This document shows positions 35,969 through 52,800 of a stretch of 64,000 bases of DNA, in pieces (positions within the stretch are counted from its first letter, which is position 1; each line of letters begins with the position of its first letter). The notes under the pieces are model-generated. The model was not told the origin of the DNA, did no database searches, and was given only the letters and a program-made list of their open reading frames with translations. The stretch lies in the IMG/VR virus record IMGVR_UViG_3300028840_004168, positions 1 to 64,000 of that record; one strand, given 5' to 3'. The position numbers and the translations under genes were made by a program. Origin of the DNA: a virus.

Positions 35969-36598
35969 TTAACTATTATTGGGTATCGGGATTGTCTTGT
36001 GCGCTTTGCACGATGGACAGTATACTTTCACACTCTTACTTCCGCAACACTTGCCTTTAATCACTAATTCAGCGCCGCAACGTGGGCAAGGATTGTAAGG
36101 CAGCTTGTTTTCAGGCTGTGCAGTTGCATGTTTTACTTTTGTTTCTCTTACAATCTCTTTTTTGACAACTGGAGTAGGAGCCATATTCTTACCATGACCA
36201 GGAATATCTTCTGGCCTTTGTGCGAAAAATGCACTATCCGCACCTGGATAAATAAACCCAGCCCTCTGCGTAATTTCCACAATAGTTTCTTTTGGAATTT
36301 TAGATAAAATCTTTTCCTGGTAATTCTTACTTTCCTCTTTCATTTTTTTAATTTCTTCTTCTGACAGCTGTGGAACTGGAGTTATCTCATGTGCATACTT
36401 AGGATGAAATAAGGTAGTAACCATTAGATTTTCTATTGGTACTATTCCTTTTTTGAATACAGGTTTAATGTCCTCATAAGGCACTTCAAAACCTGAAAAT
36501 TCAATTATAATTTTCTTATTATCATCATCAAAAATCATTTTAGTTTCCATACTATGTTCCTTATAAAACGCCAGTTGTGTCTTGAGATTGACCATCAT
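35969..36598 (-). CDS. hypothetical protein with C-terminal CPxCG..KCCG..CxxC domain
   Basis: PCPRCGAELVIKGKCCGSKSVKVYCPSC; true start may be internal. Confidence 0.7.
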   Translation of the reverse strand: MMVNLKTQLAFYKEHSMETKMIFDDDNKKIIIEFSGFEVPYEDIKPVFKKGIVPIENLMVTTLFHPKYAHEITPVPQLSEEEIKKMKEESKNYQEKILSKIPKETIVEITQRAGFIYPGADSAFFAQRPEDIPGHGKNMAPTPVVKKEIVRETKVKHATAQPENKLPYNPCPRCGAELVIKGKCCGSKSVKVYCPSCKAHKTIPIPNNS

Positions 36599-38855
36599 AA
36601 AAACAAATTTGATACATCATGTTGTAATAAGTATAATCGCCATAGATGCAATACTGCACAGGAGGCCACTCAAGATCATCTATCCAACAAAATTCTGTAA
36701 GCTGCATCCTGCTGTATCTCCGTCTCGGCTGATACACTTCGTTTTGAAACCCTTTTGGATATTCTGCCAATTTTGTGCTTCTTTTGATTTCCCATAGCCC
36801 TTCATCCAACGGTTCTGGCTCAGGGCTTGATGAGCCAAAAAAAGTAAATTGATCAAGGCCAATCCCTCCGCAAAATTCTCCTAGAGGTATTTCAATTCCA
36901 AAACCATTAAGCCCTGCTACGAACGCAGGGACAGAGCAGCCGTCTCCTGGTATATAATGCTGTGTTTCAGAAGGAACCAGCACCCCTACCTGTTGAGGAA
37001 ACCCTGCTACTCTGACAGCGTTAGGAGCGCTAAATGGGCTTGTAATAAAGAAAGGTTTTCTCTGTTCATAAGGATCTGTCGGCTCGTCTTCTTGTAGAGA
37101 AAATATTTGCTTGTTAAAGGCATTTGTAATCTGAAACCCTTCCATAGCCTCTACATCAGAGGCATAAGAAGCGCTTACATGAGGGAACCAGCGTGGCGTA
37201 GAGATCAATGCATTTCTCGTAGGTTGAACCTTTATTTCCTGACCATACTGATTAGTATAGCAATGACCGCCAAGCGTCCTGATGAGCGTGCCCTTCCCAA
37301 ATTTACCAGTTTCAAATTCCAGATAGAAAATGCCCCATCTCTCTGCAGTCTCTCCGCATTCGCTTAAACTTGTACCAGAAGCTGTCTGCCTGTCTATAAG
37401 CGCCACGCATGCGCTATGGTTTACTGGAACCACCCATCTTACTGTCTCTTCAAAATTAGATTCCCAGTCTCTTCCCCATTCAAGATGCTGCCACTTGTAA
37501 TTAATAGTTGCCCATCCTAAATCAATATCTTTATGCCTGATCTTTCTAAAATATTTAGCTGGATCGTTAAACCCACTTTCATCCCATCCACGATTGCTAT
37601 CAGCCTGCGCTATGATATAATCAAACTTGTTCATTGTGTCGTAAGCTATCCCTTTAAATTGACTGTATGGGTTGTAAGGAATGTCAAATTCACAACGCCA
37701 GTATGCACCTAGAATGCATAGGTTCTCTTCTGCATAAGGCCTGTAAAGGCAAGCTATCATAGGAAGCGCCGTCCCAGCATCGGCTCCCCAGTAAGGAGTT
37801 GGGAACCTTTTAAATGCTCCTAAGTCTGTCCTTATATTTTTTGCATACCACGACTCGCCACTTATTTTAATCACCTGTTCAGTTTTATTCCACACCAGAG
37901 GATATATCATTACATGCATCGTTGACTGATTGCCCATCTTCCTGTTTTGACAATCACGCCAGTCTGTGCAAGGGAACCTAGTGGAGCCAGGGCCACCCCC
38001 GCATCCTGGTTGCACGTATGACAAATCAGCCCATCTATCCCAAGTGATCCTGTAAAGCATCCCTATTTCATTACCGGAAGGAGTGTTCTTATCTATTATT
38101 CTGTAATTAGCATAAGCATAAAGGCCATCACCAGGAAGGCCATTATAAATTGAAGCATCAGAAGTAGTGCCCCATGTTACATATGGAATGCCACACCCCC
38201 TCTGACCCAGAGAATACATATCCAGCATGCCAAGCTCCAACTCTGATTGTGACCAGGGAACTTCTGCATACCTGGCAGAGCCTTCTTCTATTTTGTCGTA
38301 TATATCCATTTCACCATTTTTATGATCCCATGCTTTTCCTTTGAATTCATAGTATCTGGCATGCCCTTCACTTGGACTATAGTTATGATATTTTCCTTCG
38401 ATTATATAGCCGCCTGCGCCGCATGATCCACCAGCAGGATGTTTCCCTACTACAGCAACAGGGTTGCCGCTTAAAAACATCAATATAACCCTGTCTTTTT
38501 TTGCAAAAGGAGTATCGGTATGCCAATACCCTTCACTTTCAAACTGGCTGCTCAATCCAGGTATATATCCATGAGTGGTATAATAATTAGGATCATCAGT
38601 TGTAGGAGAAGCGCAATGGTAATGTATAGGTATGTCTTCATATATGACAGTCCTTCTGTGTGGCTCACATTCTGTTCTAGTTGGATTTGCTTGAGTCACA
38701 CATTCAGAATTATCCCAGTCAGGCATTTCTTCTACCTTGACACTGCAGTTCACCCCATGCACTAGCTCAACTATCTCTCCTACTTTGAAAGTAACCTTGT
38801 ATTCTTCGTCTGATGGATAAGCAAGATATGACATTATATTATCCCAATTCCCCAA
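36561..38855 (-). CDS. Cys/Trp-rich tail-tip protein, putative receptor-binding or virion protein
   Basis: 764 aa, 20 Cys by manual count, beta-rich, at the distal end of the tail operon. Confidence 0.6.
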   Translation of the reverse strand: MGNWDNIMSYLAYPSDEEYKVTFKVGEIVELVHGVNCSVKVEEMPDWDNSECVTQANPTRTECEPHRRTVIYEDIPIHYHCASPTTDDPNYYTTHGYIPGLSSQFESEGYWHTDTPFAKKDRVILMFLSGNPVAVVGKHPAGGSCGAGGYIIEGKYHNYSPSEGHARYYEFKGKAWDHKNGEMDIYDKIEEGSARYAEVPWSQSELELGMLDMYSLGQRGCGIPYVTWGTTSDASIYNGLPGDGLYAYANYRIIDKNTPSGNEIGMLYRITWDRWADLSYVQPGCGGGPGSTRFPCTDWRDCQNRKMGNQSTMHVMIYPLVWNKTEQVIKISGESWYAKNIRTDLGAFKRFPTPYWGADAGTALPMIACLYRPYAEENLCILGAYWRCEFDIPYNPYSQFKGIAYDTMNKFDYIIAQADSNRGWDESGFNDPAKYFRKIRHKDIDLGWATINYKWQHLEWGRDWESNFEETVRWVVPVNHSACVALIDRQTASGTSLSECGETAERWGIFYLEFETGKFGKGTLIRTLGGHCYTNQYGQEIKVQPTRNALISTPRWFPHVSASYASDVEAMEGFQITNAFNKQIFSLQEDEPTDPYEQRKPFFITSPFSAPNAVRVAGFPQQVGVLVPSETQHYIPGDGCSVPAFVAGLNGFGIEIPLGEFCGGIGLDQFTFFGSSSPEPEPLDEGLWEIKRSTKLAEYPKGFQNEVYQPRRRYSRMQLTEFCWIDDLEWPPVQYCIYGDYTYYNMMYQICFYDGQSQDTTGVL

Positions 38856-40663
38856 TCATCATAGTTAGCAAATCTATAAGGCATTATCATGTAACTGTCT
38901 TGCGCAGGGACGTTAACGCCCATCTCTGCCAGAGCTTCAAAACATTCTTCTATAGTTGTTATACTGGCAGCTATACTTTCACATTCAGGCTGCCAATAGC
39001 TCTGGCAATCTTTGTTTGAATTGTGTTTCAAAGCAAGCTCCCATTGCTCCATTTCATCTGACTCAATAAAATCTTCTTCTTTTGCAGTGCTGGGAAGAGG
39101 CATATTGATAGCGCAATTAACCTCAATGCATGAGCTTACAAATTGCTGCTTGGCCTGCCCCATATTATCTGTGCGAGTAGGGCAAACATTCCTCATATTT
39201 GGCTGCACTTTATTAAGATTGCCTAAAGCATCTTGCTGATACGGCTCTTCACATGCTACCTTTGCAATAGCGTAATAGTCATCAATAGCCCATGAGGTAG
39301 CGTCCATCGAAGCGCAGTTCAAAAAACCGCCTTCGCATTCCATCACATATATAATAGTTACCTCTCCTTGTAAACTGCCTATATATGCCCATCTCAAGTA
39401 TCCTCCTGTAAATCCAGGAGTTCTGTAATATGTCAGACTAAGGACATAGTAATCAAGAAAGCTTGACTGCCAGTTCTCAGTACCATAATTATATTTCTGT
39501 GCAAAATACTGTCCATTACACAGATGCCCTTCTGGAAACGTCATTGTAACAGTAATAGATTCACCAGGAACATTCCTGTCATGAGTCAGCTGCCTTATTA
39601 CTTTATTATCATTATCGCATTCAGCACAGCAGCGCTCAACATATTGAACCCACTCATCAGACATCACTACTAAATCAGCGTTGTAGCCTGACGGATCGCC
39701 AATGTTCTCTATATAAATCAAGCCGCTTAATGAAGTAATTACATACACTGTGGCTTTGCAAGTATTAGTTATTTTATTATAATAAATCTCAAGAGCGCCT
39801 AATGGCCTTACTTCCCAAAAGAAATAAGAAAGCTTATTAAAGTTGCAAATGCAGTAATGGCTGGAATACAAATAATAGTCAGGCTCAGGATAAACCGCAT
39901 TTTGCACTTGGGCATTATTAAACCCAGGAGCATAGCCAGACCAGTATATAGGACGTATAGCAGCAGTAGGGCACATGTCTACCTCAACCACATTAGGATT
40001 GCAATTCGAACCTTTTTCGCATATCAAAGCTTCTACTATAGTATGTCCATATGCATTCGGAGCTATATTTTGATAGTTCTCTTCTCCCTCTGCAACCTCC
40101 AGCCTTTGATCTACACAAGGATCTTGATATGGTTTGCATTGATCAGGTATTATCTGAGGGCATGCTCTTGTGCAGGCTTCTATATTAACTACACTTTGAG
40201 CGCATTGAAGATAGCTGTTAAGCCGTTGCTGGTAGACAGGCCAGGGCTCGAAAGGCTGCTGCTGAGGCAGCGCACCGCACCTGCCCTCTATGCATTCATC
40301 AAAACACTGGGTAGCGTTTTGTGCATCCCCATCAGTGTTTCCAAACTCTTTAGGGCACGCATCTTTACAGGATTGCCTTTCTGCTTCAACACAGTATTCA
40401 TAAGTAGCCATCCGATAATAAAACGACCTCCAGTTTTCAGTATCAGACTGTTCTGGCATTTTACCACATTTATCTTCTATACATATATCATAACAGCTTA
40501 GGTCTATAACTCTTATTCCAGGCTCATATTTGACATCTATAGCCCTGACTTGCTGAGGCATAGGATTACATATGTCTAAAGTAAAGGTGAGGCTTTTTTG
40601 ATTTTCAATAAATATGGTAGGCTCAACTGGGACTTTTACATCTCCGTCATCTCCGTTTGCCAT
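38834..40663 (-). CDS. very Cys-rich tail-tip protein with internal repeats
   Basis: 609 aa, 34 Cys by manual count; CIExxCG..P..W..Y..R..Y..C...C..ACP repeated. Confidence 0.65.
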   Translation of the reverse strand: MANGDDGDVKVPVEPTIFIENQKSLTFTLDICNPMPQQVRAIDVKYEPGIRVIDLSCYDICIEDKCGKMPEQSDTENWRSFYYRMATYEYCVEAERQSCKDACPKEFGNTDGDAQNATQCFDECIEGRCGALPQQQPFEPWPVYQQRLNSYLQCAQSVVNIEACTRACPQIIPDQCKPYQDPCVDQRLEVAEGEENYQNIAPNAYGHTIVEALICEKGSNCNPNVVEVDMCPTAAIRPIYWSGYAPGFNNAQVQNAVYPEPDYYLYSSHYCICNFNKLSYFFWEVRPLGALEIYYNKITNTCKATVYVITSLSGLIYIENIGDPSGYNADLVVMSDEWVQYVERCCAECDNDNKVIRQLTHDRNVPGESITVTMTFPEGHLCNGQYFAQKYNYGTENWQSSFLDYYVLSLTYYRTPGFTGGYLRWAYIGSLQGEVTIIYVMECEGGFLNCASMDATSWAIDDYYAIAKVACEEPYQQDALGNLNKVQPNMRNVCPTRTDNMGQAKQQFVSSCIEVNCAINMPLPSTAKEEDFIESDEMEQWELALKHNSNKDCQSYWQPECESIAASITTIEECFEALAEMGVNVPAQDSYMIMPYRFANYDDWGIGII

Positions 40664-40675
40664 CTGTTGCTCCTG

Positions 40676-40942
40676 TTATAAATATACTACGGTTGTTGGA
40701 TTTATGCGTTTGCCTTGCGCTTTACCTATTATTCTCATCCTATTAGTTTTGCCATCTATAAGTCCAAGCAACACTCTGTCATCGACATTGTATGATTCAT
40801 TATTCAGCACCACGCCGTTTTTAATAATACCCCCAGCAGTTAGCTTGACTTCATATTTGCTGCCGTTCCTGGCTGTAATAACACCTTCCTGGACACTGTC
40901 TTTAAATGCAGCTTTGGCTATGGCAATAATAGCTGTTTTCAT
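40676..40942 (-). CDS. small OB-fold-like tail-tip protein
   Basis: EGVITARNGSKYEV......Y.V.DRVL pattern like spike/hub-adjacent OB domains. Confidence 0.5.
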   Translation of the reverse strand: MKTAIIAIAKAAFKDSVQEGVITARNGSKYEVKLTAGGIIKNGVVLNNESYNVDDRVLLGLIDGKTNRMRIIGKAQGKRINPTTVVYL

Positions 40943-41280
40943 GATGGCTGTTCATACCTCTCTAAATTAAGTTGATCGGTCATAGTTGTTCTGGTTATTA
41001 TAATCTGTCTGTTCCTCAAAAAGTATAAAGATGATACATTAAATTTTTCTGAATTTACATAAATTTTATCTCCATCTTTTACATGTTCCCTGATGGATAA
41101 ATTTGTTTTAACATTTAATGCTACAGGCTCATAATAATATCCATTCAAAACTATAGTGCCACGCCTGACTGCCATGTTTTCTGTAACCAGCATTTCATCC
41201 TGCAATGGTGGAGCCTCTTTGTCACCAGGATTTCTTATCAGCCTTACACTTACTGTAGGCGGCACGCTTGGGAATGCCAT
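40939..41280 (-). CDS. tail hub C-terminal-like small protein
   Basis: AVRRGTIVLNG...LNV....VKDGDKIYV pattern. Confidence 0.45.
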   Translation of the reverse strand: MAFPSVPPTVSVRLIRNPGDKEAPPLQDEMLVTENMAVRRGTIVLNGYYYEPVALNVKTNLSIREHVKDGDKIYVNSEKFNVSSLYFLRNRQIIITRTTMTDQLNLERYEQPS

Positions 41281-41282
41281 TT

Positions 41283-42329
41283 TTAAACTCCAAATTTATC
41301 ATTGGCTAAGCCATCTTTATCAGACGGTATGTAGCCAGTTTTTTCTATTAATATACTGTGAGTGCCACTTTGCGTTTGGCCTATGGAGATGCTGCCATCG
41401 CTTGCTGTAACCCCTACAAACTGACCATCTACATACACCTTAGCGCCTCCCAGTAATTCTTTAGTATTAAAATCTCTCACCTTGATCGTAACAAGCTTGT
41501 CTTCAGCTACATCGCAAGCTTCACTGATTTCAAACTGCAATGTAGTGTAAACCGTCTCGCTTACAACTGTGTCTTCTGATTGCAGCTGCTCTACCTTGTG
41601 CAAAAATAATGCTAACACTTCGCCAGGATCATTGATTTGAGCATACAAAGAATCATATGCTGCCCTGTAAGATACCTTAGCTATTCCAAATCCAAAATCT
41701 TTGAGATCAGCATTAGGGCCATTGTTCTGCTGAAACGGCAGCGCATCAGGATCATAAGGATTGTCAACATCTCTTTTGCTTATCTGGACAATACCTCCTA
41801 CAGTGTTTCCAGCAAGCGTAGATCCAGTAGGAACTATAATATTAGCGCCTCTTCCATAAAATATTTTAGTTCCTCCAGGGCCGTCAATGGCCTGTGAGCC
41901 ATAGTCTGTGAAGCCGCCTATATCCCCACTTTGATCAGTGCATCCAGTATCGAAATTGCCGCCTTCAACTACAATCTGTGTGCCTCCTGATTCATAGTCA
42001 TAGCTTCCTAAAGATACTCCCAGCCATCCCAGTTTAAATCCGCTGTAGATAGGCTTGCTCGTGTTGGCAACGAAATTATTGAATATAATAACCTCTTCTA
42101 TTTCTTCATAAGCCGTTCCTGCTTTAACAAAAAATCCTTTAGTGAGATATTTATCATAGTCAACATTACTATATACTCTCACATATACAGGTTCTCCAAC
42201 TTGAAAGCAGCTACGCCCACAGTTCTTATCGTCATCAAGCTGTGCCATTATAACTCTTTGAGCGCCTGCAAGATTACGCAAACACCCCACTTCAAACTGA
42301 AGCGTTGAAATAACTACTTGTTCAGCCAT
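41283..42329 (-). CDS. tail-tip protein, paralog of 42346-42903, with C-terminal PEGA-like domain
   Basis: KNCGRSCFQVGEPVYV; C-terminal GAKVYVDGQFVGVT..DG...GTHSILIEKTGY. Confidence 0.65.
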   Translation of the reverse strand: MAEQVVISTLQFEVGCLRNLAGAQRVIMAQLDDDKNCGRSCFQVGEPVYVRVYSNVDYDKYLTKGFFVKAGTAYEEIEEVIIFNNFVANTSKPIYSGFKLGWLGVSLGSYDYESGGTQIVVEGGNFDTGCTDQSGDIGGFTDYGSQAIDGPGGTKIFYGRGANIIVPTGSTLAGNTVGGIVQISKRDVDNPYDPDALPFQQNNGPNADLKDFGFGIAKVSYRAAYDSLYAQINDPGEVLALFLHKVEQLQSEDTVVSETVYTTLQFEISEACDVAEDKLVTIKVRDFNTKELLGGAKVYVDGQFVGVTASDGSISIGQTQSGTHSILIEKTGYIPSDKDGLANDKFGV

Positions 42330-42345
42330 GCTTCACCTTCTAATT

Positions 42346-42903
42346 TTATAGTTCAGCCCATGCCAGCAACAGGGCAGTAGCTTCAGACTCTCCCAGCACA
42401 TCTGGATTGGTAACGAGAACTCTAATCTCATCCCAGTCTGCAGAATAAATCACATGTGCTACCCCAGGAAGTATTACACCTTCCTCATCTTCAGTGGCGC
42501 ATCCTCCACCTGAATCTGTAGGAAAGGCTGTAATCCTGTTTGACCCTACTGGATTGTTAATTAGCGGCCCTGCGTCTGGCGGCTCCAGCCCAAACCATTC
42601 AAGAGTGTCAATGTCTGTGATTGGCTTAGAGACAGATCCTTCATAACCATCCAGCACTATGAACTCATCAAATTCATCAGTCTCACCACTAACAACAGAA
42701 GCATTGCCTACATTAGAATACGCTGATGGAGTAAGCGTCAATGGATACTTGTAAGCTTTGACAAATACCGTATCTCCGACCTGAAAACAATTGCGCCCAC
42801 AATTTTTGTTATCATTTAATTCAAGGTCAATAGAGGCATCCGACTCAGCTTCACAGACTCCAACTGTGAATTCTAATGATGATACTACTACATTCGTTGC
42901 CAT
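42346..42903 (-). CDS. tail-tip protein, paralog of 41283-42329
   Basis: KNCGRNCFQVGDTVFV...EFIVLDGYEGSVSKPI. Confidence 0.65.
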   Translation of the reverse strand: MATNVVVSSLEFTVGVCEAESDASIDLELNDNKNCGRNCFQVGDTVFVKAYKYPLTLTPSAYSNVGNASVVSGETDEFDEFIVLDGYEGSVSKPITDIDTLEWFGLEPPDAGPLINNPVGSNRITAFPTDSGGGCATEDEEGVILPGVAHVIYSADWDEIRVLVTNPDVLGESEATALLLAWAEL

Positions 42904-42913
42904 CTTAAACTCC

Positions 42914-44299
42914 TTATTCTAAGTAAGTTTCTTTTTCACTTAGCTCTAAAAAAACTTTATGACATTCATTTTCTTCGCCTGCTGGCGATTGACAAATATA
43001 TCTAAACCTGAGAAATTCAGTTTTATAAGAAGCTATAAACACGCCGCAGTAAGGATGTTCAGTCGTCACCAACTTATAACCGTCTGAGTAAGTATAATCT
43101 CCCAGGTCTTTGCCGAAGTATCTGCCAGTCAGTTCTTTGGCAGGTCTTGCCAGCGTGCCTACGCCGTCATTGATCACTATCTCTTCTTCTTCTATTTCTT
43201 CTTCTTCAAGCGTAAGCAACAGAAAACTGGTTATCTCAGCAGTAGTATCTGTCTGGCTGGTCAAACAATATTCAAATCTTTCATCAAATGCTTCCTGCAG
43301 ATCCATGTCGGCTCGTATAAACGGACTAATGTAAGCCCTTATATACCCTTCTTCTCCATAATCAAACGATGACTCACCACATTCTATTTCAAGGTCTATG
43401 CTGTGATCGAGATCAGCGCCAGTCTCTTCAACGCCTGTTATAAGAAGGTTGTTGTATCCCGTATTTGCAGACTCATCAAAATCGATTGACTCTATATAAT
43501 TATAGTCGAACAGCATCGCATCAGGACTTACAATTATATTATCCCAATCCCTGTTGTTATTGGCACAGCCAGCATTGATCTCTTTGATAAACAGGTTTCC
43601 AAAAACATCTGGATCACTGCTGGTAGCGTCAGGTTGATCATGTGAATTCCTTATTCTAAATCCAATTATATCACAAACATTAGCAATCACCTGCAAAGGT
43701 GTGCTGTTAGAAACAGAAAACGTGCCAGGGTAAACAGGGAAGCTTTCTTTGAAGAAATTTTCAGTAGAAGTGCTGTCATACATGACATCTAATAAAGATA
43801 TCAGCCCTGAGCTCCCCCAATAATCATTAGACGTATCTATCATCTCTTGCACTATATCATGTGCAAAAATTAATTCTGAAGACTGCCACACGTAAGGAGT
43901 AGCGCCTGCTTCTATCTCTTCGTCTGTTTTGTCCGTGATCGTGATCGTATAAGGATTGTCTAACCTGGCTAATTTAGCTCTTCCCCAAATAGAGTATGCA
44001 CCGCTTCTGATATCGTTCTTGCCGCTTACTTCTTCAATTAGAAATCTGAACTCCCAGTATGCAGGCGGCGTATCTCCTTCGATATAACTCCGCATCCTCA
44101 GCCATATACGCTCGTTTCCATCAAGGCGATATTCATTCATCAAGTCATAGTAGGTATCATCTATAAATGATATTTCAACAGTATCTGAGAATGATGACTC
44201 ATCGATGTTTAGAGATATCTGCTCAATATACTCCTGCAGCTCTATATCGCTGGTGCTATCAACCCTTAATATTATTTTTACGTCATGTATTAAATGCAT
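42914..44299 (-). CDS. tail hub (Tal/gp27-like) N-terminal protein plus paralog domain
   Basis: IEQISLNIDESSFSDTVEISF, GRAKLARL, FSVSNSTPLQVIANVCDIIG; C-terminal domain related to the two downstream genes. Confidence 0.55.
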   Translation of the reverse strand: MHLIHDVKIILRVDSTSDIELQEYIEQISLNIDESSFSDTVEISFIDDTYYDLMNEYRLDGNERIWLRMRSYIEGDTPPAYWEFRFLIEEVSGKNDIRSGAYSIWGRAKLARLDNPYTITITDKTDEEIEAGATPYVWQSSELIFAHDIVQEMIDTSNDYWGSSGLISLLDVMYDSTSTENFFKESFPVYPGTFSVSNSTPLQVIANVCDIIGFRIRNSHDQPDATSSDPDVFGNLFIKEINAGCANNNRDWDNIIVSPDAMLFDYNYIESIDFDESANTGYNNLLITGVEETGADLDHSIDLEIECGESSFDYGEEGYIRAYISPFIRADMDLQEAFDERFEYCLTSQTDTTAEITSFLLLTLEEEEIEEEEIVINDGVGTLARPAKELTGRYFGKDLGDYTYSDGYKLVTTEHPYCGVFIASYKTEFLRFRYICQSPAGEENECHKVFLELSEKETYLE

Positions 44300-44301
44300 C
44301 T

Positions 44302-45195
44302 TTAAAACGCCACTTCGTAAGATGTTATATCGACAGCGATGTTATAGCTAACGATTACTTCTTCTATTGCCAGATCTTTATCAACTATTTCGTATGGTAT
44401 GACAACATCGCTGCTAACAGTTTCTAAAAGAGCGTTTACAATGATAGTCTCTTCGCTCTCAAGTCCTACCAGATCATAGACAATAATCATGTCAGATCCA
44501 ACTTCGATACTATAAGAAACTACCAAGTCTTCTTTTGCCAGTGGCTCCAGCTCATATACAATAACAACGTCATCGCTTATAACCACTGTTCCAACAGAAT
44601 AAGGCACGATTACTTCAGATGACATGGTAAGAGAATATGAAACGATAACTTCTTCGCTGGCTAATGGTTCCAGCTCATATACGATTATAGTGTCGCTGCT
44701 TACCGTAGTCACGCCGATGTTGTAATCAATGATCATCTCTGACGCAAGCATAATGCTGTAATCAACGATCATCTCTTGACTTGCAAGTGCGCCTATCTCA
44801 TTAACAATTATAGTCTCATCTGAGATAACACTCATCAACCCATACAGGATGATCTTCTCGTTGGCAGTCAATATCGGAATTACAACTACCGTCTCTTGAG
44901 ATATATACAGTTCTAACCTGATGTCATGATCTTTGTTTTGCGTCTGTCCGTCAAAGAGCATATATATATCATGATCTTTATCTTGATGCTGCCCATCAAG
45001 GCTCAAGAATATATCATGATCTTTATCATACTGAACCTCTACTAAAATAACATTATCAGAAAGCTCTCCTACAACAGCAAGAGTGTGTATTACTGAATCA
45101 CTGTTTTCACCTGCAACAATTCCTTGATCCACTATTGCAGAGTCAGAATAGTTAACAGAGGAAATTCCTCTTGAGCCAAACCAGGGCAATAGCAT
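44302..45195 (-). CDS. acidic beta-repeat virion protein (fibre or solenoid-like)
   Basis: 3x DKDHDI repeats, then about 12 repeats of 13-15 aa S(D/E)xx(I/V)(I/V)xY. Confidence 0.65.
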   Translation of the reverse strand: MLLPWFGSRGISSVNYSDSAIVDQGIVAGENSDSVIHTLAVVGELSDNVILVEVQYDKDHDIFLSLDGQHQDKDHDIYMLFDGQTQNKDHDIRLELYISQETVVVIPILTANEKIILYGLMSVISDETIIVNEIGALASQEMIVDYSIMLASEMIIDYNIGVTTVSSDTIIVYELEPLASEEVIVSYSLTMSSEVIVPYSVGTVVISDDVVIVYELEPLAKEDLVVSYSIEVGSDMIIVYDLVGLESEETIIVNALLETVSSDVVIPYEIVDKDLAIEEVIVSYNIAVDITSYEVAF

Positions 45196-45207
45196 GCTAA
45201 ATTCCTA

Positions 45208-45828
45208 TTATACATCCACAGTCATAGCCGCACGAGTTCTGATCGAAATGTTGGTATAAACAACTGAATTCGGATCGACAGGCACAGTAACCCTGCGCCA
45301 GAATGTTTCCGATGCAGGCGCAGTCAGATTGCCAAGTGCCAAATCTGCCCCTGGAACTGCTGTGGTATCCAAGCCTGCTTGCGTCTCAGCAAATTTATAC
45401 CATGTTTCCTGCGCATCGCCAGGGACAGCAGGAGTAAGATCATACGGCCCGACTGTTAAGTTAGTAGCATCATACACTGCATACAATAACGATCCTGTGC
45501 TATGCGTAACAGCAGTAGTGTCAAGAAACCCACGCACTACAGTCAATGTCTTTCCATTGACTGCCGTGATAAGTATCTTCTCGCTGTCTACCTGCGCTAC
45601 TACAACTTCACCAAACATCCCATCGATAGTGCTATCGTTGATAGCTATAAACGTATCAGCAGCTCCGATAGACCCATCTAAAGTAGTTTGTTCCGCAGCA
45701 ATCCATAGCTGTTCGTCTTGAGTAGTAGAGTCAGAAGGAATAATAGCATAATCAGGATTATTATAATATTGCAACTGGCTTACTCTGTCTGTCAAAGCAG
45801 CATCTTTATATATTCTTAGAATAGGCAT
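45208..45828 (-). CDS. tail structural protein, paralog of 45845-46468
   Basis: LRIYKDAALT..NPD, VVRGFLDTTAVTHSTG, FWRRVTVP. Confidence 0.7.
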   Translation of the reverse strand: MPILRIYKDAALTDRVSQLQYYNNPDYAIIPSDSTTQDEQLWIAAEQTTLDGSIGAADTFIAINDSTIDGMFGEVVVAQVDSEKILITAVNGKTLTVVRGFLDTTAVTHSTGSLLYAVYDATNLTVGPYDLTPAVPGDAQETWYKFAETQAGLDTTAVPGADLALGNLTAPASETFWRRVTVPVDPNSVVYTNISIRTRAAMTVDV

Positions 45829-45844
45829 AATTACCTCTTAATGC

Positions 45845-46468
45845 TTATGATGGACGATGCACTAAACGTTTAGCTCTAACTCTCCATCTTAAATCACTCT
45901 TGTAAAACGCAGACTGCCCAGGTGGAACAACAATATTGCGATAAAACATCACAGTCTCATTGTAAGCCACACTGCCGATGTTCAGCTGCAAAGCAGCAGT
46001 AGTATCCCATTCAGGAGAAGAGGCATCGTAATAAGTCAACGAAACCCTGCACCAGCCAGACTCATCAGTAGCATCTGTATCATGACCGCTTACTGTTATA
46101 TCAGCATAATCGTAAGCAGCCCTTACCACAGTGCCTGCAGTATAGCTCTGTATCGCAGTTCCCAGGACACCCCTGTCAATTGTATAATGACCGCCTCCTA
46201 GATCGCCAATTATAGCTGCAAGCTCAGTAGCGCCCAGGAATACAATATCTCCAGCATCGAAAACACCCTGCGCCAGAAACATATCACCAGCAGTAGCGTC
46301 AAGAGCGTTTGCAAGCTCTGTACGCATATTCCCCAGGTAAAGAGTCTCTACCTCACGCTGCCCGATAGTGCCGTTAAACACGCCTGAGTCTGGATTAGTC
46401 ATCGTGCCGTCAAGAGACAATGGCCTTGTTAAAGCTTCGTCTTCGAAGATTCTAAGTGAAACAGACAT
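45845..46468 (-). CDS. tail structural protein, paralog of 45208-45828
   Basis: LRIFEDEALT..NPD, IDRGVLGTAIQSYTAG, FYRNIVVPPG. Confidence 0.7.
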   Translation of the reverse strand: MSVSLRIFEDEALTRPLSLDGTMTNPDSGVFNGTIGQREVETLYLGNMRTELANALDATAGDMFLAQGVFDAGDIVFLGATELAAIIGDLGGGHYTIDRGVLGTAIQSYTAGTVVRAAYDYADITVSGHDTDATDESGWCRVSLTYYDASSPEWDTTAALQLNIGSVAYNETVMFYRNIVVPPGQSAFYKSDLRWRVRAKRLVHRPS

Positions 46469-46479
46469 TCAAGCCTCCG

Positions 46480-47544
46480 TTATGCACTTTCGCCAGCCTG
46501 ATTCAAATGCGGATCATTTCTCGACTCACTAGCTGAATTAGCTGGAATGATTTCTTTGACCCACACCCCTTTAGCAGATTGACTGGTAGTAAACACTATC
46601 TGATTCCCAGCAACCCAGCTACCAGCGCCCCATGCATCTGTAGGAATATAAAAGTAATAAGAGCTTCCATTGATAGCATAGTAAGCTGAACTTTTATTGC
46701 CTGGAGGAAGAGCGCCTGTAGCTGCTCCAGAAACAGTGAAAGCAGTAGAACTTGTAAACGTAATTGTCCAAGTATCAACTATACTTCCAATATTATAAAC
46801 ATAGACATTATCGACAATAAAAGTAGCAGGCCCAGTCTGACTGACAATCGCCTTGTCTGCCTGCGTATCTCCCAGCTCTACGCATGAAGCTCCAAAGGTA
46901 TAATAGCTGGTAGCATGTGTTGGCCCTAAAGTATAAGCGTTCCATGAATAGCGTGTAGCCGTAGAAAGCAAAATAGTAGCTACATTGCTTATCCATGAGA
47001 CAGCGCCAGAAGGTATTGCCCTGACATACTCTTCTTGCTTAACAACAAAGATGCCCTGAGAGTCATTGTATTCATACTCTGCCAGTCTAATAAGAGCACC
47101 ATCGTCAACGCCATCGTAAGGCCCACCTGAAGGCCCATCAAACGCAAGGGCTATGCTGGTAGAATCAGCAGCTATGTTAGCATTGATTTTACCGCATCCA
47201 TGCCAGCTGGGAACTGACCCTATGGCTGCCTGCGTATCTGTGTTAGTCCCTGCGCCTAGCCTGAGCCAGTCATCTCCAGGACTCTGTCTGCCTACACATA
47301 TGCGATGATTGACAAGCGCCAATCCATCTCTAGTGGCATCGCTAAGATCAGCTTCGTTCTTACAGAAGAGTTTACGATATCTGGTAAGACCAGTTATGCG
47401 TTCCGCTTCTGAAACATTAGGAAGCAGATTTTCTGCAACATTAGAAGTAATCCTGTTGCTAGAAATACCGCCGCCATTCGTAGGATCGTCACTGTTTACC
47501 AACGCCCGAAACATTTTTAAATCGGCTGAAACAATCCCTGCCAT
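46480..47544 (-). CDS. conserved phage tail/virion structural protein
   Basis: NGGG.S.......ENLLPNVSEAERITGLTRYRKLFCKN motif seen in phage tail modules; VWVKEIIPA. Confidence 0.7.
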   Translation of the reverse strand: MAGIVSADLKMFRALVNSDDPTNGGGISSNRITSNVAENLLPNVSEAERITGLTRYRKLFCKNEADLSDATRDGLALVNHRICVGRQSPGDDWLRLGAGTNTDTQAAIGSVPSWHGCGKINANIAADSTSIALAFDGPSGGPYDGVDDGALIRLAEYEYNDSQGIFVVKQEEYVRAIPSGAVSWISNVATILLSTATRYSWNAYTLGPTHATSYYTFGASCVELGDTQADKAIVSQTGPATFIVDNVYVYNIGSIVDTWTITFTSSTAFTVSGAATGALPPGNKSSAYYAINGSSYYFYIPTDAWGAGSWVAGNQIVFTTSQSAKGVWVKEIIPANSASESRNDPHLNQAGESA

Positions 47545-47555
47545 TGTAAAACCTC

Positions 47556-47954
47556 CTAATTAAGATTCTCTGATAATGTTTTTACTTCTTCATCTGTTAA
47601 ATCTAATTCGCCTTCTTTAGATTTAGAATAAATTAAATCATAAACCGCATGTAAATAATTCGATAGCCTGTGAATTATTATACCAACAAAAAACGGAATA
47701 GCAAAAAATAAAATATGAAATTCAATATTTTTTATTTCCATATATATAAACGCTGCAACATATGCCACAACCCATCCAAGCCAAACGGATTGACAATACT
47801 TACAATCTAGGAACTCTTGATAATGCTTGTTATCAGAAAAAGATTTGACAAACCTTCTCAGCGGCTGCACAGGCAGCCCATCAACCCACAATTGGCACAA
47901 TGCCTCAGTTAGTATCGCTGCTAGTATTATCATAAGTATTGCCAGTCCCATCAA
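47556..47954 (-). CDS. DUF1360-like membrane protein with CxxC
   Basis: Three hydrophobic segments; EFLDCKYCQSVWLGW. Confidence 0.65.
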   Translation of the reverse strand: MMGLAILMIILAAILTEALCQLWVDGLPVQPLRRFVKSFSDNKHYQEFLDCKYCQSVWLGWVVAYVAAFIYMEIKNIEFHILFFAIPFFVGIIIHRLSNYLHAVYDLIYSKSKEGELDLTDEEVKTLSENLN

Positions 47955-47955
47955 T

Positions 47956-48096
47956 TTATCTCCTTTGTTGTCTTTTATGTTTTAAAAAGTTATAACTGCA
48001 ATTAGCCCTGCTACACCTTTTCTTTTTATATGTTCTGCCACAGCATTTCTTCGTGACCTTATAAATAAGGTTGCTGCCGCACTTCGGACACTTCAT
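47956..48096 (-). CDS. small basic six-Cys protein (46 aa, below track cutoff)
   Basis: Manual translation MKCPKCGSNLIYKVTKKCCGRTYKKKRCSRANCSYNFLKHKRQQRR; ATGA overlap with the upstream gene. Confidence 0.7.
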   Translation of the reverse strand: MKCPKCGSNLIYKVTKKCCGRTYKKKRCSRANCSYNFLKHKRQQRR

Positions 48097-48491
48097 ATTT
48101 CTTCCAGTATCAAAGTATAAGTCCGTTCATTTCCTCTGAACGCAGGTGAAAACCCTACCCTCCTTACCCTATAAAGCGGCACATAAGTAATAAAACCAGA
48201 GCCAGAAGTTACTACCTCATGAATAGTCCTGGTATTTGATTCTTGAGTTATCGGTATGCCATCCCTGAAAGTCAGTTCTCCTTTGACATTTGCCAACTGA
48301 CTTAACCATGCATATTGAGTCTCAGTGATAGCACTGATAGTGAAGCGCTTCTTTATTTTCTCAGGATTAGACTGCAGCAGCTGACCAGCAATATTTCTTC
48401 TGACTTCTCCGAACCACATGTCTTCAGGCTCATAAGACTCTGGCTGATGCTCTATCAAAGTATTATTTATATATATTCCATCATAAGCCAT
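48093..48491 (-). CDS. distal tail (Dit)-like protein
   Basis: IYINNTLI...P.SYEPE......RRNIAGQL.....IKKRFTI...Q pattern, just downstream of the tape measure block. Confidence 0.55.
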   Translation of the reverse strand: MAYDGIYINNTLIEHQPESYEPEDMWFGEVRRNIAGQLLQSNPEKIKKRFTISAITETQYAWLSQLANVKGELTFRDGIPITQESNTRTIHEVVTSGSGFITYVPLYRVRRVGFSPAFRGNERTYTLILEEI

Positions 48492-48507
48492 TATTTACCT
48501 CTATTAC

Positions 48508-48696
48508 TTATTGTTGAATCCTACAATATATTAAACCAGATGGTCGCCATAATAATCTTGTCTTATTGTATGAAACAATAAAATTATCATCAAAAGCAGC
48601 TCTTAAAGCAATAGTTTTTTCTTTTAAACTTCTTATAGAACCAATAACAACACCGCTTAATTCCCTCCTTAGTCTCAAAGCTTTTGTTAATTTCAA
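48508..48696 (-). CDS. small basic hypothetical protein
   Basis: ORF track; fills the gap in the operon. Confidence 0.45.
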   Translation of the reverse strand: MKLTKALRLRRELSGVVIGSIRSLKEKTIALRAAFDDNFIVSYNKTRLLWRPSGLIYCRIQQ

Positions 48697-48703
48697 TCAT
48701 CTG

Positions 48704-49876
48704 CTATTTCGCTCTCTCTACAAAGATCATGACATCATTCAAAGCGTTAAAGTTAAGAGTGTAAGTTATCACATAGCCGTCTCTTACAGGAGTGAAGGGC
48801 TCAAGGGTAGCTCTCCTGGCGCATACTATGACCTTGTCATTGCTGGAGGCACATTCAGCCACCATAACAAAATTAAATATGTCACCATCCAGGTAGCTCT
48901 GGTAGTCGCTCCTGTTATAAAATCTTATATCCACAGATCCAGCCACAGTCCTGCTTTTTAAAGAGTAAGCCATAGCTTCATCATCGCCAGGAAAATAATC
49001 TGGTCTTAGATCATTTATTATATCGATGTCAAATCCTGATGCTTCCGCTACTTGCAGCCCTTTGTATAGCCGCAGCGTCAGAGGATCTATTAAAGAAGGA
49101 TAGTGAGGATCGACAGTATAAGCGCCAACTGCTGATGTAGAATCAACTGCCTCTCTAGCAGCTATAAGGCCTGCAGACAGGCCAGCAATAGTATCAACAC
49201 TAAAGGTAAAGCTCAGCGCATTAACCTTGACACCGTTGTATAGGTAATAATCTATATCCCTCTGAGACTGCATACAGAGGCTCACAGGGAGATTGAAATG
49301 AACATCAGTATAGTAATTAGGGACGATGGCATACACATCACTGGCAGTTGAATCTACCAGCCCAAAGAACGCTTCTTCAGCAAAGTATCTCTTCGCATAT
49401 GTTGATTGCTCGCCTCTAGTCACTGTAAAGGTATAGTTGGGCGGCGGAGATCCATGCTTGTTTGCACTGACCAAGTCAAGCACTTCGCCCCCAACGAGAA
49501 AAGTATCCACGCCATCAAAGCCATCAGGGTCAAGTGTATTAACTTCGAAGTCCGTAGCAGTGCTGTCGGTAACGTCTTGATTGAGTGTGCCATAAATAAA
49601 CCCCTTACTTCCAAATAAACTTTTGTCAGTAAATTCGATCTTTCTACCAATGGCGGCTGTCATTACATCTATAATAGAAAGATCAGCCGATAGATCGACA
49701 TTGAGAGGCCCACTGCCAATGTAGTTAGTCTTCGCTAACTCACCATAGTTAATAAAGTTAAGCACATTGTAATCGTTTAAAGTAGAAACCACTCCCTCAG
49801 ATACCAAAGGGAAATATTTATCTGGAATTCCAGATTTAAAACTTGACTCTGTGCCTATGTATACAAACGATGCCAT
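48704..49876 (-). CDS. second tail-tube paralog (tube initiator or minor tube)
   Basis: IGTESSF...FPLVSE, YNGVKVNALSFTF, GFDIDIINDL, RTVAGSVDIRF parallel the major tube motifs. Confidence 0.7.
   Translation of the reverse strand: MASFVYIGTESSFKSGIPDKYFPLVSEGVVSTLNDYNVLNFINYGELAKTNYIGSGPLNVDLSADLSIIDVMTAAIGRKIEFTDKSLFGSKGFIYGTLNQDVTDSTATDFEVNTLDPDGFDGVDTFLVGGEVLDLVSANKHGSPPPNYTFTVTRGEQSTYAKRYFAEEAFFGLVDSTASDVYAIVPNYYTDVHFNLPVSLCMQSQRDIDYYLYNGVKVNALSFTFSVDTIAGLSAGLIAAREAVDSTSAVGAYTVDPHYPSLIDPLTLRLYKGLQVAEASGFDIDIINDLRPDYFPGDDEAMAYSLKSRTVAGSVDIRFYNRSDYQSYLDGDIFNFVMVAECASSNDKVIVCARRATLEPFTPVRDGYVITYTLNFNALNDVMIFVERAK
49821..49834. repeat. dispersed palindrome (perfect)
   Basis: TCTGGAATTCCAGA, codes SGIPD. 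Confidence 0.8.
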
Positions 49877-49879
49877 TTA

Positions 49880-52800
49880 TCAATCCTGTATCTTTAACAT
49901 CTTTTCACGTTTAAGATCATCCCTGAAGCTCTTTGCCACTTCAGATCTGGTAACGAATTGTCCTTGATACTGCCTGTCTCCCACAGTCAATGTAAGATTG
50001 ATGCTGCCCATGTCTTCAGGATCTTTAGCAGTAGCAGCAGGCCTTTGCGATTCAGGCGCAACCATTCCACCAGAGTAAAATCTTTGTGAAGCGCTTGTCT
50101 CGAAAAATTCTTTATTAGCCCTGACCCCCTTGCGGCTCATCACAAAAGAACCTTCAGGCAGCACTGTCTGAATCCTGTCTATACCAGGAGTTCCAGAGAA
50201 CATGCTTACGCCTCTATTCATCAGCTTGAACATCTGCTTGTTCTGTTTGAACAACTGTGCAGGTATAAAAGCCTCTCCATCAGATACTCTTACAGGAACC
50301 ATACCGCCATGCTGGAAACTGCCTACTTCGCCACCTTGATATCCTCTACTTCCCATTATAGTAGTAGCAATGTCCTCAGCTCCTTCCCTAAAAGCTCTCT
50401 CAATCCTTTCAGCCATATAATCTGCTGTATCTCTGCCTTTGTCTTCAAGATAGTTCCAGGTCTTATTTAAATTATCTCTCACTGACTCAGATGCATCTGC
50501 AAAAGCTTCTCCCACTGGATCTCTTTCTATAAATTCCATAAAGCTGATTGCTCCCTGGAATATATCTGTAGATGCAAATTCAGCCAAAACTTTTTCAAGG
50601 CTTTCCTTTGTATAGTCAGCAGCTTCTTTTGATTTTTTCTCTAAGTAGTTTGCAGCTGCGTCATAATAAAGAGCTCCATCTTTAGAAGCACTAACAAGCT
50701 TGTCTTTAATTGTATCTGCAATCTCCTTAGTAACAGGAGATTCTTTAGTAGCCATCTGTTCTTGTAATTCTAGCTGCTTTTCATATTCCGCTACTGCCTT
50801 TTCAGCTACAGCAAGATTGTGTTCTTCAAGCCTTTGTTTTTCTGCAGCAGCCTCTACCTGTTTTGCTGCAATAGCTAAGTTCTGGCCCAACTCTTTCTTG
50901 CTTATCTCAACAGTTCTTTCCAGCTCTGTATTGTAATATGCTATCTTATCTCCTAAATCAGCATAGCCACCATACTGCGCCACGATTTCATCAAGAGTAA
51001 GCTTGTTAGCATCTTTCACTGCTTCTACCTGCTCTTTAACTCCAGCAGCCTCATCTTTAATAGATGACATTATCTCTTTATTCTTTTCCAGATTTACATT
51101 GGCACTCTCTACACTGACATTCATACTGTCCATTTGTGTAGCAGCTGTAGATACGCTTTCAGCACCGCTTTCCATATTAGCCTTAAAAATTTCAGCCGTT
51201 TTATTTACATCTTCAGAAGCTTGGCGCAACTCAATAATCTTATCCACGCTTGCCTGAATACTTGGACTTGCATCTGTAGATTTGACAAAGAGCGCCATCA
51301 CATAGGCAAGATCTTTTAAAACAGAAGTCATCTCTCTTAACTGTGCAACCATCTTATTCAGCGCTTCTTCAGAAGTAAGCAATTCGTTTTTAGCCTTTGC
51401 AAGTATAAATTGCTCTTCGGCATTAAGAGTATTCCTATTCCCCAATTCATCGACTATAGCCTTCTGGATCTTGACTTGCGCCTTAGCCACATCAAGACTT
51501 CCTTTATTAAGCATTTCTATAGTTCTATTTATATCTTGATATTCATCTTTTATCTTAACTAAAGCAGCTACCCTATCGTCATCATCGCTATCTTGAGCTT
51601 TTGCCAGCTTGTTAGCTCTCTCCATCTGATCTTCTAAGAGCTTCTTCTGATCTTCATAAAGCTCTATTGTTTTTTCAACAGATTCTCTCTGCCTGTCCAT
51701 CTGATGCACTGCCTGTGTGCCAACGCCGACAATACTTTTCTGCTCCTTATTTGCCTTTTGCAGCTCTTCAGATATTGCCGCAGTTTTAAGTCTCCACTCT
51801 TCAGTTATTCCAATCTCTTCCTCTATGAGCTTTTTATTATCTGCCAGCTGATTTTCAGTTCTCGCTAAAGCCTCAGTGGCAAGACCTACAGCTTCAGCAT
51901 AAAGTTCGCTGTTTGCTCTAATTTCTTTCAGGTCATCGTCCATTTTATTATATTTAGTTTCCAGCTTTTCTATTGCATATGTCTGGTTTAATACAGCCTC
52001 TGTATCCCAGGGATCTATATCTACCAGCTTTTTTCTTTCAGCGGCAATTTTTATAGTCAAGTCTTTCTGTTTTTCAAGTGTGTCTGTGCGCTTCTTCTCG
52101 GCCTTAACATAATCGTCCAGCCCCACACCAGCCTTTTCAAATATGTCCAGATCAGCAGCAGCCCTGTTAAAGTCTATGACTGCTTTTTCAGCTTCTCTTT
52201 GCGCATCTATATATTCCAGAAGTGCTTCCTGATTTCCTAATATAAGGCCGTTTAAATCAGAGTATGCGTCAAGAGCAGCACCAATTGCCTGTTTTGATAT
52301 ATCTCCAAACAGCTTTTGTTGCTGTCCTAGCTCATCGATGGAATGAGTAGTTCTGTTAACAGATCCTCTAAGAGTATCAATAAATTTCCTGGCCTTATCC
52401 ATACCTACACCAATCTTATCAAACTCTGCAGCCGCTTCGATACCAGCTATCCTTGCCATCTGTGCCTGGATATCCTGATAAATCACAGAAGTATCTTCAA
52501 GATTATCATTCCTGTCTTCTTCAAGTTTTACTATGGCAGCGATCACGCCTTCCACTTTTTCAGTAGTCCTTATCATCTCTGCCCAAGCTTCTTCATAATC
52601 CGTAGTAGTTTTTATAAGATGCCTGCTTTTATCGTCAACCACATCCATCTGGACAGCCCATACTTCGTAGACAGCCTCTGCAGTTCTGCCTAAAGTATTC
52701 ATATCCATGATAGCCTTATGCGTATTTAACGCCACATCGAGATCTACCTCAAGCATCTTAGCTTCAAAATGTCTCTGCAGCTGATCAACTATAATATCGG

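Follow-up and report, generated by a model that had tools for sequence, protein, structure and literature searches.

The window analysed here is the first 64 kb (positions 1 to 64,000) of IMG/VR record IMGVR_UViG_3300028840_004168, a 129,910-bp phage genome with direct terminal repeats, and according to the open reading frame (ORF) list its minus strand carries all genes from ~64 kb down to 32 kb. On the basis of the tape measure gene, the tube-fold gene and the tail phrog matches, the block at 35969-48096 is assigned as the operon for the distal tail (baseplate and tip); the phage is uncultured and long-tailed. Near the upstream end of the block, a small gene for a protein with six cysteines (hereafter six-Cys protein) lies directly before a gene for a three-helix membrane protein with a CKYC motif; near the downstream end lie genes for two cysteine-rich tip proteins of 609 and 764 amino acids (aa), followed by a last gene whose product ends in a second six-Cys domain. 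The gene pair formed by the six-Cys protein and the membrane protein, and its possible relation to the Cys-rich tip proteins, are the subject of this analysis. The features of the operon are as follows, with identities given relative to L002, a metagenome contig that is collinear with the window over 20 genes and encodes P0003, a homolog of the 609-aa protein.

49880..58420, minus strand: tape measure protein of 2846 aa without cysteine (ORF list, Cys count); it precedes the tube-like and minor tail genes and marks the start of the distal-tail operon.
48704..49876, minus strand: tube-fold or distal tail protein of 390 aa, matching Phage_tube_2 (Pfam, 1.9e-12) and phrog_290, minor tail protein (2e-17); L002 ortholog 36% identical.
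48093..48491, minus strand: 132-aa protein with no family match in Pfam or PHROG, the most conserved of the block (61% identity to L002).
47956..48096, minus strand: free-standing six-Cys protein of 46 aa (CPKCG...KCCG...C-x4-C), zinc-ribbon-like by its Cys count and a weak Zn_ribbon_Top1 match, with an ortholog or analog upstream of the membrane gene in other loci.
47556..47954, minus strand: three-helix membrane protein of 132 aa with CKYC, a predicted distant DUF1360/phrog_781 member (homologs, 62-sequence alignment, AlphaFold model).
46480..47544, minus strand: tail or baseplate protein of 354 aa whose C-terminal domain matches phrog_6128 and phrog_9261; L002 ortholog 54% identical.
45208..46468, minus strand: two Cys-poor paralogs of 207 and 206 aa (paralogy E = 1e-12), the second with phrog_1101 and phrog_6284 tail protein matches.
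44302..45195, minus strand: repeat-rich protein of 297 aa without cysteine (ORF and translation); L002 ortholog 32% identical.
42914..44299, minus strand: tail protein of 461 aa, possibly the hub (phrog_6079 tail protein, 1.8e-4); L002 ortholog 52% identical, with most Cys kept.
41283..42903, minus strand: paralogs of 185 and 348 aa with a common N-terminal domain carrying C...C-G-R/K-x-C (BLASTP, L002 orthologs).
40676..41280, minus strand: two small, Cys-free baseplate proteins, 113 and 88 aa (ORFs); L002 orthologs 49% and 40% identical.
38834..40663, minus strand: orphan Cys-rich tip protein of 609 aa with 34 Cys and one homolog.
36561..38855, minus strand: Cys-rich tip protein of 764 aa with 20 Cys and a conserved N-terminal anchor.
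35969..36598, minus strand: product of the last operon gene, 209 aa, with a C-terminal six-Cys ribbon (CPRCG...KCCG...CPSC; Cys count, L002 ortholog).

Gene spacing within the block is tight or overlapping, the stop of the gene at 48093..48491 overlapping the start of the six-Cys ORF, and no convincing terminator is present within it. Co-transcription of the membrane gene with the tail-tip genes, which a preliminary description of this DNA had put forward as observed, is therefore plausible, as part of a single late operon. The only sizeable intergenic space in the operon, 212 nt at 48492-48703, separates the tube-fold gene from the following 132-aa gene; a 62-aa ORF that it contains (48508-48696) is probably not a gene, because L002 has no counterpart in its 97-nt gap.

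Loci for comparison were gathered via the membrane gene, relatives of which are encoded on at least 154 IMG/VR contigs, and 55 distinct loci had upstream context. A six-Cys gene is located directly upstream of the membrane gene in three lineages, a siphovirus (the window phage and L002), a podovirus-like phage and a myovirus, and comparison of these sequences indicates that the two constitute a true conserved gene pair. In most loci the membrane gene, located after the major capsid gene (phrog_2522), lacks a six-Cys partner. Cys-rich neighbours in these capsid-linked loci were considered as support and rejected, as they are HNH or LAGLIDADG homing endonucleases. The junction of the major capsid and DUF1360-like genes is in fact a homing endonuclease hot spot (HNH, HNH-Mom-like, LAGLIDADG), with one or two Cys-rich endonuclease genes in many loci (L022, L032, L047, L051, L062, L069, L070, L124, L146 and others).

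The podovirus-like lineage (class B) comprises at least 12 distinct loci with a fixed cassette of four genes, which encode an orphan Cys-rich protein, a ribbon protein, a six-Cys protein and the membrane protein. The orphan protein (287-753 aa, 14-24 Cys, Ig-like repeats) usually ends in D-x-R-T-x-x-M-x-x-x-G-C-C-P-x-Q-L-L, which follows a hypervariable and very Cys-dense stretch (C-termini compared in L043, L048, L052, L056, L057, L060, L061, L085, L090, L092 and L102), and this C-terminal peptide with its CC could be a recognition or modification tag. Adjacent cysteines are common to this peptide, to the six-Cys partner (CCG, invariant) and to the 609-aa protein (CCAEC/CCPEC). The ribbon protein, encoded directly after the Cys-rich protein, has ~130 aa, is helical and carries a C4 ribbon, and as a zinc-ribbon helper it parallels the 209-aa protein of the window. 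The class-B six-Cys gene (CPxC...CCG...CxC) overlaps the start of the membrane gene, which is followed by genes for Cys-free proteins, one of them with a lytic-transglycosylase-like segment. In the myovirus locus (L067), a permuted six-Cys protein (CC...CPxC...CPxC) and the membrane protein are encoded between the sheath and tube genes.

A six-Cys partner was found in 12 of the 55 loci, and an orphan Cys-rich protein is encoded within 3.5 kb upstream in 10 of these 12 and in none of the 43 loci that lack the partner (Fisher p = 2e-9), although these 10 positives, or 11 with the weakly related 753-aa protein (18 Cys) of L060, represent one lineage, such that the independent count is two of the three six-Cys lineages, with the lineage of the window included by virtue of Cys-rich genes 7-10 kb away. 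In both of these lineages the operon with the pair also encodes orphan Cys-rich fibre or tip proteins and a further zinc-ribbon helper. The co-occurrence of DUF1360, the six-Cys domain and Cys-rich tails, which had been suggested as a check on the first proposal, thus held in two lineages out of the three with the pair, the exception being L067. Beyond the membrane protein, BLASTP of the window phage against the pair loci gave two weak matches (E ~1e-5), both outside the block, and therefore nothing else in the window operon is common to these loci.

By itself, the window's membrane protein matches Pfam DUF1360 (PF07098) below the cut-off (14.7 bits against 21, E = 0.03) and over profile positions 55-79 only (25/102). 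Its homologs provide the link, as seven of eight match DUF1360 (best E = 5e-5) and all eight match phrog_781, while in the nearest ESM Atlas clusters, which are mostly viral, DUF1360 is found in 13-14% of members. Through these relatives the protein can be placed as a distant member of DUF1360/phrog_781, which bears out its earlier description as a DUF1360-like membrane protein with CKYC. Nine residues are invariant in the 62-sequence alignment (E17, C51, C54, S56, W58, H95, R96, N99 and H102). The AlphaFold model consists of three long helices (pLDDT 93), and neither Foldseek nor VIA-align returned a significant PDB match for it, the best Z of 6.1 being at noise level for helical proteins. 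K/R counts (loop 1, 4.8; C-tail, 2.8; N-terminus, 0.2; loop 2, 0) lead by the positive-inside rule to an N-out/C-in topology with all invariant residues at the cytoplasmic leaflet; these residues are most readily read as one Cys2His2(Glu) site, probably facing the cytoplasm.

In the literature, DUF1360 is essentially unstudied, being named in two papers, and the six-Cys partner is absent from the family descriptions that we found. A tblastn search with the membrane protein and two of its relatives against annotated phages gave no match, and a scan of genome contigs produced five membrane-gene matches in contigs of metagenome-assembled genomes (MAGs). Two of these loci, L149 and L151 (QNDS01000009.1 and JBAZEO010000021.1), were binned to Fermentibacteria and Dehalococcoidia MAGs. 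Judging by their equal lengths, they are probably the same viral contigs as IMG/VR ones of 32,411 and 30,307 bp, so that no host can be taken from them reliably, and the binning points only weakly, if at all, to anaerobic hosts.

The six-Cys motif C-P-x-C-G...CCG...C-x(2-4)-C occurs exactly twice in the six-frame translation of the complete genome, once at each end of the block, and the two domains match each other in pairwise BLASTP (E = 5e-6), in agreement with the earlier observation that one domain brackets the operon. All six Cys of the 209-aa protein lie within its last 40 residues, and the 46-aa ORF likewise has six. The 46-aa protein scores 15.6 bits against Zn_ribbon_Top1, below the cut-off of 32, the C-terminal tail of the 209-aa protein has sub-threshold matches to several ribbon families, and in a PDB profile search with the domain the first knuckle alone matched, to ordinary zinc knuckles. 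The spacing of the last Cys pair varies (x1, x2, x4) and the central CC is invariant; overall the domain looks like a zinc ribbon. The remainder of the 209-aa protein consists of a short conserved N-terminus and a variable middle; its 151-aa L002 ortholog keeps the ribbon and the N-terminal ~35 aa, and the protein is a candidate helper for the tip proteins.

Cysteine makes up 5.6% of the 609-aa protein (34 Cys) and 2.6% of the 764-aa protein (20 Cys), and these exact counts agree with those first reported. The whole proteome contains 1.84% Cys, which we judge, without a comparison set, to be high for a phage. Because the other proteins of the structural module have 0-1.5%, with 0 in the 2846 residues of the tape measure, the two tip proteins are true outliers among the virion genes. 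The 764-aa protein is listed with a TTG start; in its database form, as in the L002 ortholog, translation begins at Met8 (MSYLAY and MSFLNY, respectively), giving 757 aa with the same Cys count. Neither protein has a Pfam or PHROG match, searches of PDB sequences with these and the 461-aa protein returned nothing, and no close relatives of the two were found in 50,697 phage records, in IMG/VR pattern scans or by a word-based search. An exhaustive HMMER search of 1.8 billion cluster representatives recovered a single homolog of the 609-aa protein, P0003 (517 aa, 34% identity), each of whose 26 Cys is matched by a Cys in the 609-aa protein, compared with an identity of ~30% over the non-Cys positions. 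The view of this region as a tail-tip operon with unusually Cys-rich proteins that conserve their cysteines is upheld by this alignment and by the tail matches, and the 609- and 764-aa proteins constitute, solidly, an unusually cysteine-dense class of orphan tail-tip proteins. The CGRxC motif noted earlier in two paralogs likewise withstood analysis: the 185- and 348-aa proteins are 37% identical over 111 residues (BLASTP, E = 6e-19), and their C-x3-C is kept in both L002 orthologs. The C-terminal end of the 348-aa paralog is a CarboxypepD_reg/PEGA-like beta-sandwich.

Within the 609-aa protein, a module of the form C-x3-C-x4-C-x24-C-x7/9-C-x3-C is present in tandem (residues 57-103 and 120-168; z = 14.9 relative to shuffles). 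P0003 carries this ~50-residue module once, and its duplication is the main source of the extra Cys of the 609-aa protein. A third module at residues 494-574 was considered and rejected, since its similarity to the first two was not significant. The twin CX3C and CX9C proteins of the mitochondrial intermembrane space are helical hairpins, in which antiparallel helices carry nested C-x3-C pairs. The layout suggested for the 609-aa protein is of two tandem helical modules, a beta-rich core and a Cys-bearing C-terminal part, the helicity coming from a low-confidence model (AlphaFold with a two-row alignment, pLDDT 32). Its 34 Cys include one CxxC, a CC-x2-C and many short-range pairs (x3 to x7), and none of its four His is conserved. 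In the 764-aa protein, residues 8-153 alone align with the 720-aa L002 ortholog and the remainder is divergent, which is the pattern that would be expected of a spike or receptor-binding protein. Its first ~150 aa are probably an OB-fold anchor; an ESM Atlas lead placed the protein near a Phage_base_V cluster (0.89) with structural neighbours that were all OB folds (TM ~0.4), and Pfam gave no Phage_base_V (PF04717) match at E <= 10.

L002 keeps every component of the system, that is, a 50-aa six-Cys ORF, a membrane protein, and 517-, 720- and 151-aa proteins. The membrane protein is 49% identical to that of the window, with an identical DCKYCQSVWLGW motif; the 517-aa protein has 26 Cys and the 720-aa protein 17, and the 151-aa protein ends in a six-Cys ribbon. 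Given L002, the combination of Cys-rich tip, six-Cys and membrane genes is more than chance.

Just downstream of the tail-tip operon, a GT9 (heptosyltransferase-like) glycosyltransferase gene is split by an intein (32993-35236, minus strand). This gene is kept in L002 (14627-16861; 744 aa, 45% identity, 18 Cys), and the class-B locus L085 encodes an 848-aa GT1+GT9 protein with 22 Cys (66-2612) near the Cys-rich fibre cassette. Such glycosyltransferases near Cys-rich genes may serve virion glycosylation. In class B, the three proteins encoded after the membrane gene (~2500 aa in total) are Cys-free (L043, 10338-17956; L093, 8297-13634), which, like the Cys-free tape measure, suggests that Cys is selected against in proteins leaving through the tail.

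Membrane oxidases of the DsbB/VKOR type are four-helix bundles that carry one CxxC on the extracytoplasmic side and another Cys pair in a loop. Neither DsbB nor VKOR (PF02600, PF07884) matched anywhere in the complete genome at E <= 1, and in its six-frame translation there was also no match at E <= 1 to Erv1/ALR (PF04777), thioredoxin (PF00085), glutaredoxin (PF00462) or DsbA (PF01323). The matches of the membrane model by Foldseek and VIA-align included no DsbB or VKOR, and the protein has three helices and only two conserved Cys. Similarly, the genome has no match at E <= 10 to the gpL-type Fe-S tip protein (Phage_tail_L, PF05100). From the missing redox families and the knuckle-like six-Cys domain it follows that no catalyst is identified, and that the conserved residues are explained as well or better by zinc sites. 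The preliminary description had proposed a dedicated system that oxidises or metallates the tip proteins; this proposal was not sustained, since the genome contains no redox family, the searches with the membrane protein and its model brought up neither DsbB nor VKOR, and its conserved site reads as a metal site.

The explanation that we prefer, at a probability of about 0.4, is that the pair is a membrane-anchored assembly or maturation helper, probably with zinc-based chemistry. The free-standing six-Cys protein, of zinc-ribbon type, would be the fixed partner of the DUF1360-like inner-membrane protein, and the two would act on, or hold, Cys-rich fibre or tip proteins during assembly, with the ribbon of the 209-aa protein serving as an adaptor for the tip proteins. 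Zinc-mediated docking or chaperoning would be the first choice for the chemistry of the pair and thiol oxidation the second. The 609- and 764-aa proteins would be lineage-specific virion tip proteins that use Cys as structural cross-linkers, in the 609-aa protein most likely as disulfide staples, with nested C-x3-C ... C-x3-C and an inner pair as in the twin-CX3C/CX9C hairpins; the 764-aa protein would combine its N-terminal anchor with a freely evolving, spike- or receptor-binding-like C-terminal part. A functional link of the pair to the Cys-rich proteins is plausible, while we infer the topology, the choice of disulfides over metal and the action on the tip proteins. The wider proposal, that the two-gene module found in at least three morphotypes is a dedicated maturation system (for disulfides, metal or another Cys modification) of Cys-rich fibre and tip proteins at the inner membrane face, seems to us improbable.

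Several points count against the helper. The positives amount to two independent lineages only, and the third, L067, encodes no Cys-rich protein within 10 kb; in the window phage itself, 7-10 kb separate the pair from the Cys-rich genes. Both the partner and Cys-rich neighbours are missing from most phages that have the membrane protein, and its core role therefore cannot depend on them. The topology draws only on the positive-inside rule, and for the 609-aa protein the choice between disulfide and metal comes down to spacing, because of the low pLDDT of its model. Finally, an anoxic sediment habitat, should the phage have one, would make extracellular disulfides unstable.

The alternative that survives best, although we consider it somewhat unlikely, is that the pair forms an unrelated, late-expressed membrane module, for lysis timing (a three-helix protein like a class I holin, plus a regulator), superinfection exclusion or genome ejection or entry, and that its co-occurrence with Cys-rich genes is a lineage coincidence in Cys-rich phages. 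The format of the membrane protein, ~105-130 aa and three helices, N-out/C-in with a charged tail, is that of a class I holin; within virion operons its gene is found at varied sites, behind the major capsid gene, between those for sheath and tube or ahead of Cys-free ejection-like proteins; a weak SieB-like phrog match (0.002) was found; and the high overall Cys content of the window phage (1.84%) goes along with many zinc-finger genes. However, nine invariant polar residues across very diverged sequences would be unusual for holins or exclusion proteins, the class-B four-gene cassette includes the Cys-rich protein and the ribbon helper in every locus seen, and the same type of ribbon is fused to the gene after the tip proteins in both the window phage and L002.

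A second alternative concerns the tip proteins and is independent of how the pair is read, namely that their Cys ligate metals (zinc or Fe-S) instead of forming disulfides, which we regard as unlikely. A [4Fe-4S] cluster on four Cys is established in gpL-type tail tip proteins (PMC10721106), numerous x3-x7 Cys pairs and a CC-x2-C occur in the 609-aa protein, the 185/348-aa paralogs have a compact set of ~4 conserved Cys, and metal sites would survive a reducing habitat. On the other hand, no gpL family match was found, the 609-aa protein has a single CxxC among its 34 Cys and conserves 0/4 His, and the nested, symmetric spacing of its duplicated helical module is better suited to disulfide-stapled hairpins. 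The weakest alternative, and a decidedly unlikely one, is a redox relay in which the membrane CxxC would act as a DsbB/VKOR-like oxidase, the six-Cys protein would shuttle disulfides or metal, and the tip proteins would be oxidised or metallated in the cytoplasm: the invariant CxxC does lie at the membrane interface beside a buried Glu, the six-Cys partner is obligatory in lineages with Cys-rich fibre or tip proteins, the genome offers no alternative oxidoreductase for the task, the Cys spacing of the 609-aa protein is like that of disulfide-relay substrates, and such machinery is undescribed in phages (PMC13576161), but sequence and fold searches showed no similarity of the membrane protein to DsbB, VKOR, Erv1 or thioredoxin folds, it lacks a second Cys pair and any flavin or quinone motif, its CxxC, with two invariant His next to it, looks more like part of a Cys2His2 metal site than like a free redox pair, the six-Cys domain matches plain zinc knuckles in its first knuckle, and 43 of the 55 membrane-protein loci are without the partner or Cys-rich neighbours.

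Disulfide-containing tails, which have to form in a reducing cytoplasm, are emerging in cryo-EM structures. The window locus and the class-B four-gene cassette supply concrete candidate genes for the maturation of Cys-rich virion proteins. Even if the pair is not redox-active, it provides a first genomic handle on DUF1360/phrog_781, a widespread family of phage late genes without a function. The cysteine-dense class of tail-tip proteins could also be useful as a source of stable binding scaffolds.

The use of cysteine in phage tails is not new. Cyanophage Pam3 has a disulfide-linked baseplate wedge and fibres (PMC9942802), the tail tube of a siphovirus contains inter-ring disulfides (PMC13576161), sheath and baseplate disulfides of phage Milano are cited in the same paper (PMC13576161), and lambda gpL-type tail tip proteins hold a [4Fe-4S] cluster (PMC10721106). 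The preliminary description was accordingly too strong in treating phage tails as poor in Cys and free of disulfides. Its remark that a dedicated system of this kind is not known to be described for a tailed phage agrees with the literature, a 2026 paper stating that phages have no described machinery dedicated to thiol oxidation (PMC13576161). Like the disulfide-linked tails, the window operon would use distal Cys as covalent stabilisers during cytoplasmic assembly and encodes no canonical oxidoreductase, although here we infer the disulfides; unlike them, with their few Cys per protein, it has a protein with 34 Cys, a duplicated six-Cys helical module and a candidate helper pair. It resembles lambda gpL in having conserved Cys in a siphophage tail-tip protein and differs from it in the number and spacing of these Cys and in the absence of a Phage_tail_L match.

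The membrane protein has the characteristics of the DUF1360/phrog_781 family of phages and bacteria, with ~100-130 aa, multiple helices and a conserved C-x2-C-x-S-x-W segment; it is set apart by a score below the Pfam cut-off and by a six-Cys partner that lies outside the family description found. By analogy with DsbB/VKOR and with the poxvirus E10R-A2.5L-G4L pathway, it might be seen as a membrane or virus-encoded CxxC protein of the kind proposed for virion disulfides, but it differs from these in having no sequence or fold match, a CxxC that is probably cytoplasmic, two invariant His and no second Cys pair. A dedicated maturation module, if it exists, would give phages their first equivalent of the cytoplasmic disulfide pathways of poxviruses and giant viruses. 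Residues 57-103 and 120-168 of the 609-aa protein, modelled as helical, would share the nested C-x3-C register of the twin CX3C/CX9C proteins and depart from them by a third, inner Cys pair. What is new relative to all of these systems is the conserved pair of a six-Cys and a DUF1360-like protein, together with its cassette with Cys-rich fibres in a second, unrelated lineage.

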